Part shown: one piece after another, positions 2,779-58,825 of the stretch
Layout: every line of letters begins with the position of its first letter
Position numbering within the stretch: position 1 is the first letter of the stretch
NCBI RefSeq assembly: GCF_024700885.2
Contig: NZ_CP117016.1
DNA: 64,000 nt
Reading direction: 5' to 3' (one strand)
Source: Escherichia coli
GTDB lineage: Bacteria; Pseudomonadota; Gammaproteobacteria; Enterobacterales; Enterobacteriaceae
Translations under genes and position numbers: made by a program
Notes under the pieces: model-generated
What the model saw: only the letters and a program-made list of their open reading frames with translations
The model's database searches: none
What the model was told of the DNA's origin: nothing

Positions 2779-3065
2779 CCAGCAACCAATGCCACCAGGG
2801 ATAAAGCCCCCGCAACATTGCGCCTCACCGGATAACGCCGGCTTGGTGTGGATACTACGTCTCAATTCATCTTCACTTCATCCCTGAAATGTTTGCAATA
2901 AAGAGTACATTCCGGCTTTTCAACAGCTGTTGCAGTGGTTTCGTGCAGGTTCTGGTACAGGCTCGCAATTCTGATTAACAACCTGTTCAGGTAGTATGAA
3001 GAAATACAATAAGCAGGAATTTATATTATCTCCCCCGATTTCTGTCATCGGAGGAGATATAACTG

Positions 3066-4166
3066 TCAGGCAAATATCGTCATCAAATAGGCGGCAAACA
3101 GTGCGAGATGCGCTGCGCCATTGAGCACGTTAGTACGTCCGGTGGAGAAGGAGATATGGCACAGCACTAAAGAGGCCACCATCACCACCATTTCTGGCGC
3201 ACCAAGTGCAAACTGCAATTCGTTACCCGTCATAAAGGCAATTAGCGTGACGACAGGTACGGTAAGCGAAATGGTTGCTAACACTGAACCAAAGAACAGA
3301 TTCATCGCGCGCTGGACCTGGTTGTTCAACACTGCTTTTAACGCACCTAAACCTTCCGGCGACAGAATCAACAGAGCCACCAGGAAGCCAGTAAAGGCGA
3401 CAGGGGCATTCATGCTGTCGAGCAATGTCTCCAGTGGGCTGGCGTTCATTTTGGTCACCGCAATAACGGCAATCAGATGGACAATCAACCAGATAGCATG
3501 CCACAGGCTGCTATGGGCAGACGGTTTACCGTGGTGCGGGTCGTCATCATCACTGTCATCTTCGTGCTCGTAGACAAATAAACTTTGATGCGTTTTGGTC
3601 TGGATCAGCAAAAATACGCCATACATTGCCGCAGAAATTAATGCTACCAGTAACGCCTGACCGGTTGAAAAATTCGCCGCAGGCAGAGCCATTGGAAATA
3701 CCAGTACGATTATCGCCAGGGGGAACAGCGCAATTAAATACTGCTTGATACCAAACAGATTCATATATTGGGTGGCAAACTTACGACCGCCCAACAATAA
3801 TGAAAAGCCAACCAGCCCACCGGTAACAATCATAATGATTGAATAGAGCGTATCACGCATTAGCGTTGGTGCGGCGTCGCCGGTTGCCATTAAAGCTGAA
3901 ATCAAACTGACTTCAAGAATAACCACTGAAAGGCTAAGAATAAGCGAACCGTAAGGTTCTCCCAGGCGATGGGCTAATACGTCCGCATGACGGACAACAC
4001 TAAAGGCGCTACTTAAAATACCAATAAGAGCAAGAAGATTGATGGCAATGACCACTGGTAGTGTCTGGCTGCTTCCCCACAGGAACAGCACTACCAGCGC
4101 CAGAACCGGGAAAATAAGCGAAGTCTCCTTGTGGCGGGTTTTTACCGCCTCTTGAGCATTTGACAT
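3066..4166 (-). CDS. chaA: Ca2+/H+ (Na+/H+) antiporter ChaA
   Basis: Polytopic membrane ORF; start moved to the internal ATG at 4166 (MSNAQEAVKTRHK..., 366 aa) because the 29-codon upstream extension of the track ORF is low-complexity with no RBS. Confidence 0.85.
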   Translation of the reverse strand: MSNAQEAVKTRHKETSLIFPVLALVVLFLWGSSQTLPVVIAINLLALIGILSSAFSVVRHADVLAHRLGEPYGSLILSLSVVILEVSLISALMATGDAAPTLMRDTLYSIIMIVTGGLVGFSLLLGGRKFATQYMNLFGIKQYLIALFPLAIIVLVFPMALPAANFSTGQALLVALISAAMYGVFLLIQTKTHQSLFVYEHEDDSDDDDPHHGKPSAHSSLWHAIWLIVHLIAVIAVTKMNASPLETLLDSMNAPVAFTGFLVALLILSPEGLGALKAVLNNQVQRAMNLFFGSVLATISLTVPVVTLIAFMTGNELQFALGAPEMVVMVASLVLCHISFSTGRTNVLNGAAHLALFAAYLMTIFA

Positions 4167-56185: not shown

Positions 56186-56352
56186 CGAGATTAAAGTGCA
56201 TTAGTTCAGATGCAAATTGACATTTTGTGGCACAGGGTAGAGCTAGCGTGGTTGTCCGCTTTGTGCCAGAAGCGGACATAGCAGGTGCCAGATGCATTTG
56301 TTATTCTTCATTGAATTGAGCAGTATCCTTAACAGGAACTCTGAATACATAA

Positions 56353-56991
56353 ATGAAGATGAAAAACATGTCTGAAGTGTTGACCCAAGAAAAGCTTATT
56401 TTTGTTGCCCAGAGACTAAATGCCCTCGCGCAGTCAGGCCTGACCTATTCAAAAGACGTCTTTGACAAGGAACGCTATGAAGCCTTGCGTGAAATTGCCG
56501 CTGGACTGCTGAGTTCGCAGTTTGATATTAGCCGCAATGATTTGTTTCATGTATCGGAAACGGGTTACGCGACGCCCAAAACAGATGTGCGTGCGTTTAT
56601 CCTGCGTAATAATCGTATTCTGATGGTGAAAGAGGCTGCAGATGGATTATGGAGTCTTCCTGGCGGATGGGCAGATGTTGGAGATACACCTTCTGAAGCT
56701 GTGCGTCGAGAGGTCGAAGAAGAAACCGGATTAAAAGTCAGAGTGACTAAACTATTGGGAGTTTGGGATCGTAATCTTCACGGCCATCCGCCTTTACCCT
56801 GGCATGTTTACAAGCTGATTTTTCTCTGTGAAGAAGTAGGTGGCAGCCTGTCAATCAGCCATGAGTCACTCGATGCTGATTTTTTTGATGTCAACGACCT
56901 GCCTGAATTGTCGCTTTCAAGAATTGTGCCTGAGCAGATTGCTGTCAGCCTGAGAGTAGCGAAAGGTGATGAAAAAACATGGTTTGATTAA
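56353..56991 (+). CDS. NUDIX hydrolase with Nudix_N-type N-terminal domain (prophage cargo)
   Basis: Nudix box GGWADVGDTPSEAVRREVEEETGL (Gx5Ex7REUxEExGU); N-terminal ~60 aa resemble the Nudix N-terminal extension of ADP-ribose pyrophosphatase-type enzymes. Start may be 56359 or 56368. Confidence 0.8.
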   Translation: MKMKNMSEVLTQEKLIFVAQRLNALAQSGLTYSKDVFDKERYEALREIAAGLLSSQFDISRNDLFHVSETGYATPKTDVRAFILRNNRILMVKEAADGLWSLPGGWADVGDTPSEAVRREVEEETGLKVRVTKLLGVWDRNLHGHPPLPWHVYKLIFLCEEVGGSLSISHESLDADFFDVNDLPELSLSRIVPEQIAVSLRVAKGDEKTWFD

Positions 56992-57020
56992 CTTTCTTCT
57001 GCAACCATTAAGGAATGGCA

Positions 57021-57659
57021 ATGATATTCAACGCTAAGGGTTTTTTATTCGATATGGACGGTACGCTGGTTGATTCAACAGCCGTAGTGGAAAGCGTCTG
57101 GAGAGATTTTTGTGCAGAATACGGTCTTGATACTCAGGCTGTGATTGCTTACGCACACGGGCGGCAAACGATTGATACACTGACGCATTTTATTGGTGCA
57201 GGTGAGAAAACCAATAAAATCGCGGCCTCACTCGAAGAGGTTGAAATCAACACGACAGAAGGCGTTACTGAAGTAAAAGGGGCCGCTGCACTCTTATCAA
57301 AACTGCCACCGGATAGCTGGGCACTTGTTACTTCTGCAGGCAGAATGCTTGCCGAAAACAGGATGAAAGCGGCTAATCTCCCCTTACCCATAGTAATGGT
57401 GTGTGCAGAAGATGTAATGACGGGAAAACCAAGTCCCGAGGGTTACATCAAAGCAGCTTTGGCTTTGGGCCTTGAGCCTGGTGAATGCGTGGTATTTGAG
57501 GATGCATCTGCGGGTATAAAAGCAGGGCTGGCAAGTGGAGCTTCGGTAATAGCTGTTCAGCCTGACGCTCTGGGATCATCTGAAGCCCATGCCGTCAGCG
57601 AGCTGTCTGACATTATGGTCAAGATTTCCGGAGAACGTTTCAATATCATCTGTGGTTAA
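57021..57659 (+). CDS. HAD-superfamily phosphatase (beta-phosphoglucomutase-like subfamily)
   Basis: Motif I FDMDGTLVDS, motif II VTSAG, motif IV EDASAGIKAG; ATG at 57021 is 6 nt after AAGGA; 29 bp downstream of the Nudix gene. Confidence 0.8.
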   Translation: MIFNAKGFLFDMDGTLVDSTAVVESVWRDFCAEYGLDTQAVIAYAHGRQTIDTLTHFIGAGEKTNKIAASLEEVEINTTEGVTEVKGAAALLSKLPPDSWALVTSAGRMLAENRMKAANLPLPIVMVCAEDVMTGKPSPEGYIKAALALGLEPGECVVFEDASAGIKAGLASGASVIAVQPDALGSSEAHAVSELSDIMVKISGERFNIICG

Positions 57660-57922
57660 TCACGTTACACAATACGCATCAATGGACGCTGAGTAGTTCG
57701 CGAGTTTTAAACTTCCAACGTCCGCTTTTCGCTCAAAGCGGACTAGAAGGTTAGCTTGCGTCGGACTTGGCGTATTTAAAGAAGTGCTGGTGGTGACTGG
57801 TTGTTGTGTTCCATTTCTACAGAACAAAATCACAGAAACTATACCCAATAGTTGTATTGAATCACTGACGAGACAGCCTCATATTTATCAGGACTGGTGT
57901 ACGTCCAATACAGGAGGTTGTG

Positions 57923-58012
57923 GTGCTGGTTCTCAAATGTGCGCTGGCTATTGCTGCTGTAATGGCAATTTATTGCCTTGCTGTTGTTCTTATGGATCGC
58001 CTTTCTGATTGA
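57923..58012 (+). CDS. Candidate small hydrophobic peptide (29 aa) with strong Shine-Dalgarno
   Basis: AGGAGG at 57912-57917, then GTG at 57923 (or 57920); translation MLVLKCALAIAAVMAIYCLAVVLMDRLSD has a single predicted TM helix and charged tail; not in the ORF track (<60 aa). Confidence 0.3.
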   Translation: MLVLKCALAIAAVMAIYCLAVVLMDRLSD

Positions 58013-58223
58013 TTTCATATTGGCGAGGTGACGGGAGTTAAGTAGAATGGCTGCGGGTGCTTGAGGCTATCTGTCTCAGGCATGAACACCAAAGGCAGAT
58101 AGAGAAAAGCCCCAGTTAACATTACGCGTCCTGCAAGACGCTTAACATTAATCTGAGGCCATATCTATGCTCTACACACGTAGGTTAGCCTCTTACGTGC
58201 CGAAAGGCAAGGAGAAGCAGGCT

Positions 58224-58379
58224 ATGAAGCAGCAAAAGGCGATGCTAATCGCCCTGATCGTCATCTGTTTAACCGTCATGGTGACGGCACTGGTAACGAG
58301 GAAAGACCTCTGCGAGGTACGAATCCGAACCGGCCAGACGGAGGTCGCTGTCTTCACAGCTTACGAACCTGAGGAGTAA
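58224..58379 (+). CDS. hok: Hok/Gef-family type I toxin (51 aa), near-identical to HokD/RelF
   Basis: MKQQKAMLIALIVICLTVMVTALVTRKDLCEVRIRTGQTEVAVFTAYEPEE; the in-frame upstream extension in the track (from 58167) is not the toxin start. Confidence 0.85.
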   Translation: MKQQKAMLIALIVICLTVMVTALVTRKDLCEVRIRTGQTEVAVFTAYEPEE

Positions 58380-58447
58380 GAGACCCGGCGGGGGAGAAAT
58401 CCCTCGCCACCGCTGATGTGTCAGGCATCCTCAACGCACCCGCACTT

Positions 58448-58474
58448 AACCCGCTTCGGCGGGTTTTGTTTTTT
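58448..58474 (+). terminator. Rho-independent terminator after hok
   Basis: aacccgcttcggcgggtt hairpin followed by TTGTTTTTT. Confidence 0.65.
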
Positions 58475-58546
58475 CTGGTCGTTCTGGTTTACAATCCATC
58501 CGTCAGCCTGAACAACTGGCACCTGCTGCGCCAGCAGAGAAAACAG

Positions 58547-58825
58547 ATGGCGCACGATACCAAATTTTACAATTCGGATAACTCTGCCGCCCCTGCCAGC
58601 AGGCACGGGCGGCGTTCTCATGCATTCAAATCTGACTGGTATCAGCACGACCCCTGCACCGAAGAACAGGCTGAATGGCTCATTCAGTGTTACCGCAGGC
58701 GCGGATGCGAGGTTAAAAAAGCCCTTAGCCTCGACTACCGTCACTGGATAATCTCCGTCAGGCTCCCTTACTCAGAACGGCCAGCGCGTCCGTCCCGCAC
58801 ATTCCAGCAACGGATCTGGAGGTAA
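58547..58825 (+). CDS. Hypothetical protein (92 aa), Rem-position gene
   Basis: ATG at 58547 after the hok terminator (MAHDTKFYNSDNSAAPASRHGRR...); occupies the slot between hok and the DUF968-like gene, as rem does in Qin. Confidence 0.4.
   Translation: MAHDTKFYNSDNSAAPASRHGRRSHAFKSDWYQHDPCTEEQAEWLIQCYRRRGCEVKKALSLDYRHWIISVRLPYSERPARPSRTFQQRIWR

Follow-up and report, generated by a model that had tools for sequence, protein, structure and literature searches.

Between the HAD hydrolase gene and the hok gene of a lambdoid prophage of Escherichia coli lies a stretch of DNA on which three open reading frames overlap, the shortest of them preceded by a perfect Shine-Dalgarno sequence. Which of these frames codes for a protein, and what could its product do directly in front of hok? 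We address both questions in a window of 64,000 nucleotides (the whole stretch of DNA that was analysed, from contig NZ_CP117016.1), to which the positions refer unless another record is named. The account which we regard as probable, with some reservation for the sum of its parts, is that the stretch holds a real gene translated from its own Shine-Dalgarno sequence, that the product is a single-helix peptide of the inner membrane, and that the gene lies in the constant flank of an exchangeable cargo region and is an accessory gene of the moron type.

The locus is the early-right arm of the prophage. Replication module, DUF977 gene, Nudix hydrolase gene, HAD hydrolase gene, small open reading frame, hok/sok, a hypothetical gene, DUF968/ydfU, rusA and Q follow one another in this order. 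The features discussed below are collected in Table 1.

Table 1. Features at and around the small gene (positions in the window)
Feature	Position	Strand	Basis and remarks
Nudix hydrolase gene	56353-56991		ORF list
HAD hydrolase gene	57015-57659		ORF list
Hairpin GTCCGCTTT/TCGCTC/AAAGCGGAC	57720-57743		boundary between the exchangeable cargo (left) and the conserved block (right)
Cys-rich 74-aa ORF, ending ...CAGYCCCNGNLLPCCCSYGSPF	57784-58008	+	ORF list
Antisense 59-aa ORF	57839-58018	-	ORF list; overlaps the same DNA
Promoter-like element: -35 TTGAAT (57857-57862), 17-bp spacer, -10 CATATT (57880-57885)	57857-57885	+	phylogenetic footprint
Shine-Dalgarno sequence AGGAGG	57912-57917	+	direct reading; five bases (TTGTG) before the GTG at 57923
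Small gene, CDS of the 29-aa peptide MLVLKCALAIAAVMAIYCLAVVLMDRLSD	57923-58012	+	GTG start; TGA (58010-58012) included
hok promoter TTGGCG-N17-TAGAAT	58020-58048	+	promoter scan; -35 starts 8 bp past the stop codon of the small gene
hok mRNA leader and Sok antisense region	58055-58229	+	Rfam RF01794 (sok), 114.7 bits, E = 1.8e-26
mok/hok frame (hok CDS 58224-58379)	58167-58379	+	ORF list; PGAP hokD at the equivalent position in NZ_CP117013.1
Intrinsic terminator after hok	58448-58475	+	scan; 7-bp stem with 5 G-C pairs, then TTGTTTTTTC

The reading frame and its signals

The earlier note on this DNA described an AGGAGG at 57912-57917, followed after 5 nt by a GTG and a frame of 29 codons, and placed it between the HAD gene and hok. 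Each of these elements is found as described: the GTG is at 57923, a TGA at 58010-58012 closes the frame, and its neighbours are the HAD gene at 57015-57659 and hok at 58224-58379. The list of open reading frames carries the same frame as 57920-58012 (30 aa), starting from a further GTG at 57920, the codon just before. In many alleles this codon is GTC, and 57923 is therefore the conserved start. The start codon itself changes between GTG and ATG from allele to allele. The Shine-Dalgarno sequence occurs as AGGAGG, AGGAGA, GGGAGG, AGGGGG or TGGAGA, and its spacing of 5 nt is unchanged. The exception is the L136 allele, in which AAGGAGGG stands ahead of an ATG further upstream and the N-terminus is longer. 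Some databases contain N-terminally extended gene calls of 68-97 aa. We rejected these since they rely on the allele-specific loss of an upstream stop codon, and the region concerned is broken by indels in other alleles.

The motif AGGAGG-N5-RTG occurs twice in the 64-kb window, against 0.58 occurrences expected from shuffled sequences. The comparative data are stronger evidence against a chance arrangement than this count.

Comparative evidence for the coding frame

Homologous DNA was collected from complete E. coli genomes, cultured phages and IMG/VR, most sequences being retrieved through a search pattern which lies inside the open reading frame. Substitutions were counted along a minimum-spanning tree of the 31 unique ORF sequences, with recombination ignored. 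The 29-aa frame is intact in 128 of the 132 collected copies. The other four comprise two copies of the L005 allele, whose stop codon lies a few codons further on owing to an 11-nt deletion, one copy with a frameshift and no Shine-Dalgarno sequence left, and one copy truncated by a rearrangement. When only unique flanks are counted, the 29-aa frame is intact in 93 of 95 sequences, the 74-aa frame in 42 and the antisense frame in 36.

The substitutions point the same way. On the tree the 29-aa frame has undergone 34 synonymous and 27 non-synonymous changes, with an expected synonymous fraction of 0.31 (p = 4e-5), and the changes fall on the three codon positions as 14/12/35. Leaving out the codons of the search pattern strengthens the synonymous excess (30 synonymous and 17 non-synonymous changes, positions 7/9/31, p = 7e-6). 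On the same tree 13 synonymous changes stand against 48 non-synonymous ones in the 74-aa frame and 12 against 49 in the antisense frame, and the synonymous excess is confined to the 29-aa frame among the three. Pairwise dN/dS between distant alleles and the allele of the window is 0.12-0.35 at dS 0.5-0.9. One allele carries an in-frame deletion of 3 nt. At loci of the L003, L006 and L008 types homology to the window starts just upstream of the Shine-Dalgarno sequence.

Could one of the longer overlapping frames nevertheless be the real gene? Both are open in the window, and the antisense ORF has a CDS annotation in phage HannyBb (PP925841.1). Set against this are their intactness in fewer than half of the unique sequences and their mainly non-synonymous changes, as given above, together with indels of 1-2 nt that break the upstream part of the 74-aa frame. 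Neither exact protein occurs in a collection of 15 billion proteins, neither ORF has a family match in Pfam, PHROGs, NCBIfam or PADLOC, and by direct reading neither start is preceded by a Shine-Dalgarno sequence. We regard this alternative as effectively refuted already, and its residual probability as negligible. The earlier note had remarked that the 74-aa frame has no ribosome binding site, which agrees with the sequence ahead of 57784, and that it looks like a bacteriocin or RiPP. The latter impression does not hold up against the intactness and substitution counts and the missing Shine-Dalgarno sequence. There are also no maturation or export genes near this frame; its neighbours are the Nudix, HAD, hok and DUF968 genes.

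A different objection is that the stretch does not code at all and owes its conservation to a regulatory role ahead of the hok promoter, or to its use as an anchor for the recombination that exchanges cargos. The last ~20 bases of the ORF are indeed common to many hok loci which lack the remainder (matches span query positions 203-276 or 211-276), and the RefSeq annotation leaves the stretch empty almost everywhere. Such DNA would not explain why the third codon positions vary most (from 7/9/31 to 14/12/35, depending on the codons counted) and why the synonymous excess appears in one frame only. Frame, Shine-Dalgarno spacing and start codon are moreover held at dS ~0.9, and the ORF is kept where hok is absent. 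We consider a non-coding role very unlikely.

The earlier note had supposed that only one of the two overlapping sense frames is real and had named, beforehand, the conservation of the peptide frame in homologous prophages as a check. Intactness and substitution pattern single out the 29-aa frame, and the synonymous type of change is present. On the strength of these comparisons we are confident that the 29-aa frame is a genuine gene under purifying selection and that the other two ORFs are not.

Relatives, distribution and annotation

A profile built from the alleles gave 17 matches among 1.84 billion representative proteins. They include relatives of 29-36 aa, for example MLIIKGVLAIVIVVAIYCLVVTLWERLSD and MLAALKGFVAILAVVAIYCLVVVLMDRLSD, which have the motif (I/V)YCLxxxxLM(D/E)R in common. 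Three distant relatives were traced to their DNA. All three lie directly upstream of hok, with a purine-rich Shine-Dalgarno sequence at matching spacing, and all show the order DUF977 gene, cargo, small ORF and hok.

The gene is carried by 1,895 of 5,426 complete E. coli genomes (~35%). A degenerate codon pattern, run against one genome per species, returned only Escherichia albertii besides chance matches, so that no wider taxonomic range is demonstrated. Judged from these sequence searches the family appears to be narrow, comprising Escherichia (including E. albertii) and the Shigella plasmids described below.

Annotation of the small gene is inconsistent, and pipelines nearly always miss it. 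PGAP and GenBank annotators have called it occasionally, and then with the identical start. A few GenBank records contain the exact peptide, named "hypothetical protein" or "membrane protein" (e.g. GCZ25347.1), and for one allele RefSeq has the protein WP_000960667.1, 29 aa with the same GTG start, at 1516-1605 of locus L154 (NZ_CP085637.1). RefSeq thus calls the gene in at least one genome; among the other matches listed, from searches that matched ~1,900 E. coli genomes, no feature is annotated at the ORF. In the full-text literature, searched for the peptide string, hokW/sokW, small ORFs at icsP/ospZ and Shigella sORF surveys, we found no mention of the peptide.

The constant flank of a cargo hotspot

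The earlier note assigned the small ORF to the Nudix-HAD cargo. This assignment has to be given up. The same Shine-Dalgarno sequence and small ORF follow at least a dozen unrelated cargos in different genomes, among them the retron Ec67 reverse transcriptase, SIR2, AIPR, DUF2326, RipA, QueH, DUF262 with an AAA ATPase, HigBA, DUF4145 and DUF5677. Conversely, the Nudix-HAD cassette (56353-57743) is also found in the P2-like phage P2_4C9 (L147, 1154-2545), hairpin included; there it is flanked by the tail-fibre and tail-sheath genes, and no small ORF accompanies it. Thus the ORF is a component of the constant flank rather than of the cargo, and one cassette occupies two unrelated phage hotspots. 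The small gene is part of the constant right flank that borders a cargo hotspot in the lambdoid prophages of Escherichia, with the order DUF977 gene, variable cargo, small gene, hok, ydfU, rusA and Q.

The hotspot extends from the DUF977 gene to the small ORF and hok (~56200-57743 in the window) and is also seen in the loci L004-L014, L135-L138, L153 and L154. The hairpin at its right edge has a 9-bp stem. Homology between loci with different cargos mostly begins here, and the homology to the cassette of the P2-like phage stops here. No T-run adjoins the hairpin on either strand, so that it is unlike a typical intrinsic terminator; it may be a recombination or boundary element instead. As an aside, the 4.83-Mb sequence NZ_CP026085.1 (L153), which is labelled DH5alpha, carries this lambdoid prophage with the DUF262/AAA cargo. 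Such a prophage is unexpected in K-12 DH5alpha, and the strain label may therefore be wrong.

Putative promoter and transcript

The sequences upstream of the small gene fall into about a dozen classes. In nine divergent ones a TTGAAT-like hexamer and CATATT are kept exactly 17 bp apart, with a mean pairwise identity of 1.00 for the -10 hexamer and 0.66 for the -35 hexamer, against 0.50 for the spacer. The distance from this promoter-like element to the start codon is a constant 36-37 nt. Only 8 of its 12 positions agree with the consensus, which is why a consensus scan did not flag it. We infer that the pair is a modest sigma-70-type promoter of the small gene, with a transcription start near 57891-57893. 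This position would give a leader of ~30 nt. The element is missing in the L008 and L135 alleles, which would depend on read-through from upstream.

Between the -10 hexamer and the Shine-Dalgarno sequence, at 57894-57910, most upstream classes share the short motif GT(A/G)(T/C)ACGTC(A/C)A, and in L008 homology starts exactly at this motif. A LexA box and an IHF site in the leader were considered and rejected by direct reading. Weak terminator-like hairpins reported inside the ORF were likewise rejected, because synonymous changes explain their variation equally well.

The terminator scan finds no terminator between the small gene and hok, and the first convincing one downstream is that at 58448-58475. 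Having no terminator of its own, the transcript of the small gene probably continues through hok/sok and ends at the hok terminator. At the 3' end of the hok mRNA and over the terminator (58388-58469) Rfam reports an isrK-like match below threshold (27 bits, gathering score 50), which is reproducible in the diverged locus L136 (3404-3485).

Relation to hok

The small gene and hok are close neighbours. In 98 of 102 copies the stop codon of the small gene and the first base of the hok leader are 42 nt apart, and the adjacency is nearly constant and is kept at dS ~0.9, which hints at a functional link. The link is not obligate. About 16% of the copies are without hok. In these hok-less copies hok/sok is replaced by ~215 nt of unrelated sequence and a DUF1971 gene on the minus strand, as seen ~200 nt downstream of the small ORF in L014, L043 and L088; Rfam finds no RNA in place of hok in this context. 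The first ~16 nt past the stop codon of the small gene stay similar with or without hok. In the other direction, related hok loci occur in 4,976 E. coli genomes, compared with the 1,895 of 5,426 that carry the small ORF, and most E. coli hok loci lack it (roughly 12,800 places versus 2,200). The hokW-type loci of O157 match only the last ~70 bases.

A copy of the small gene which is 83% identical was found by a plasmid search in 124 Shigella records. This pINV allele, MLVLKGTLAIAAVMTIYCLIVVLMERFSD, is intact in pWR501 and in the S. sonnei, S. dysenteriae and S. boydii pINV plasmids examined. In pWR501 (L148, NC_002698.1) it lies at about 3040-3130, and L150, L151 and L152 carry it as well. It has an ATG start, AGGAGG and TTGAGT-N17-CATATT, and is located in the ospZ-icsP intergenic region ~330 nt before the start of icsP. 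The neighbouring hok is truncated, with only ~75 nt of its leader left. The ORF copies from the four Shigella species are identical, so they are uninformative on selection there. A published Shigella sORF survey does not list this allele. Presumably, the reporter fragments used for VirB and H-NS control of icsP would include it.

These observations bear on the idea that the peptide is a partner of Hok at the protein level, binding the transmembrane helix of Hok and thereby neutralising it or aiding pore formation. Such a partnership would account for the constant place of the gene right ahead of the hok promoter, for the 42-nt spacing and for the synteny that is maintained even in the most diverged alleles; and with no terminator in between, the transcript of the small gene would carry hok too. 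It fits badly with the hok-less copies, with the large majority of hok loci that do without the ORF, and with pINV, which retains the ORF beside a truncated hok. Shared ancestry of one conserved block could alone explain the adjacency. We think that a Hok partner is unlikely. A broader version of the idea, to which we give no better chance, makes the peptide a membrane partner of the flanking modules: either a modulator of Hok, acting as antitoxin or co-toxin beside the Sok RNA, or a stand-alone effector which accompanies any defence cargo and was kept on pINV upstream of icsP after the loss of hok.

Properties of the peptide and its possible role

The earlier note's picture of one transmembrane helix with a charged C-terminal tail is borne out by prediction. 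The highest Kyte-Doolittle mean over 19 residues is 2.7 and the GRAVY value 1.81, and AlphaFold models one continuous helix from residue 2 to residue 29 (pLDDT 92.9). The prediction is thus a single hydrophobic helix lying in the inner membrane, and an N-in/C-out orientation is suggested by the charged residues, K5 towards the N-terminus and DRLSD at the C-terminal end. The invariant core consists of (I/V)YCL and, near the C-terminus, LM(D/E)R. Pfam, PHROGs, NCBIfam and PADLOC contain no meaningful match.

With these properties, is the peptide a second type I toxin, as the earlier note thought possible? It would then depolarise or permeabilise the inner membrane and be restrained by an unrecognised antisense or trans-acting RNA. 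Size (<60 aa), the single hydrophobic helix modelled across the membrane and the short charged tail agree with type I toxins, and the prophage location right beside a bona fide hok/sok is suggestive; a very hydrophobic 29-mer beside hok could still be toxic. The further hallmarks of such a system were not found. A consensus scan of the minus strand over 57500-58600, which includes the stretch 57900-58020 named for this check in the earlier note, shows no promoter-like or terminator-like sites, and no minus-strand hexamers are conserved across contexts. No direct repeat marks a divergent trans-acting antitoxin RNA, and Rfam at E <= 1 over 57700-58050 has no match on the ORF; these searches are consensus and homology scans and may miss a non-canonical RNA. 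The leader is short and shows no folding beyond that of shuffled sequences: the segment 57890-58054 gives -46.2 kcal/mol compared with a shuffle mean of -44.7 (z = -0.45). The Shine-Dalgarno sequence is of consensus strength and not clearly hidden. The peptide is unmatched by the toxin-family models of Pfam, NCBIfam, PHROG and PADLOC, and the allele with the 11-nt deletion just after the ORF survives. As antisense RNA, structured leader and toxin-family match are not found, the proposal of a second type I toxin is unsupported, and we rate it as improbable.

We suggest instead the following model. In most alleles the gene would be transcribed from its own modest sigma-70-type promoter into a ~30-nt leader and translated from a consensus Shine-Dalgarno sequence at optimal spacing. 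It is also oriented in the same sense as the early-right operon of the prophage, and its transcript probably runs on into hok/sok, ending at the hok terminator. The 29-residue peptide would insert into the inner membrane as a single hydrophobic helix, N-in/C-out. Most likely it is an accessory membrane micro-protein of the moron type which is expressed in the lysogen and acts via helix-helix contacts. This function is inferred, and in our opinion a moron-type micro-protein is more probable than a type I toxin under RNA control.

About 35% of the complete E. coli genomes and the sampled Shigella virulence plasmids carry a selected, essentially unannotated and unstudied gene for a predicted membrane micro-protein. 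It occupies the invariable border of a prophage hotspot in which anti-phage cargos are swapped, directly ahead of hok/sok. The cargo and hok/sok modules would have to be read differently if the product took any part in membrane killing, in exclusion or in the timing of lysis. Should the product be only a benign small protein, it would be a useful if ordinary addition to the small-protein catalogues.

Comparison with known systems

Among the known systems the Hok/Gef toxins (PF01848, RF01794) come to mind first, as they are short prophage or plasmid peptides with one N-terminal transmembrane helix, encoded here at the same locus and in the same orientation. The small peptide differs from them in having no match to PF01848 (in Pfam even at E <= 10) or in NCBIfam and no periplasmic C-terminal domain; by direct reading it ends five residues past the helix. 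Its gene, unlike hok, is accompanied neither by a leader ORF of the mok kind nor by an antisense RNA like Sok, and a long folded mRNA is missing as well.

TisB, ZorO, DinQ, ShoB, Ibs and Ldr are toxins of 18-35 aa with a single hydrophobic helix, and they are missed by gene callers. In all three respects the small gene resembles them. The toxins differ by a long 5' UTR that is processed and by an antitoxin sRNA encoded divergently from, or overlapping, the toxin gene; neither was found at the small gene, and there is no profile match.

Phage morons such as HK97 gp15 and lambda bor and lom offer a comparison at the level of gene organisation. Like a moron, the small gene is non-essential and has its own promoter-like element inside a lambdoid prophage, and related phages differ in whether they carry it at this position. 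It differs by the lack of its own terminator, the first one following only after hok, and it is far smaller than the morons described. It is not known to cause an exclusion or fitness phenotype.

KdpF (29 aa), MgtS (31 aa), AcrZ (49 aa) and MgrB (47 aa) are small modulators of the inner membrane whose genes lie on the chromosome, in some cases within the same transcription unit as the complex they modulate; the small gene, by contrast, is borne by prophages or plasmids. It shares with them the size, the single-pass helix, which is predicted here, and the style of an ordinary, non-toxic gene driven by a Shine-Dalgarno sequence, as well as a short, conserved polar tail through which a partner might be contacted. 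Purifying selection and the predicted helix, both indirect evidence, make the peptide a candidate for this class of small inner-membrane proteins (<= 50 aa).
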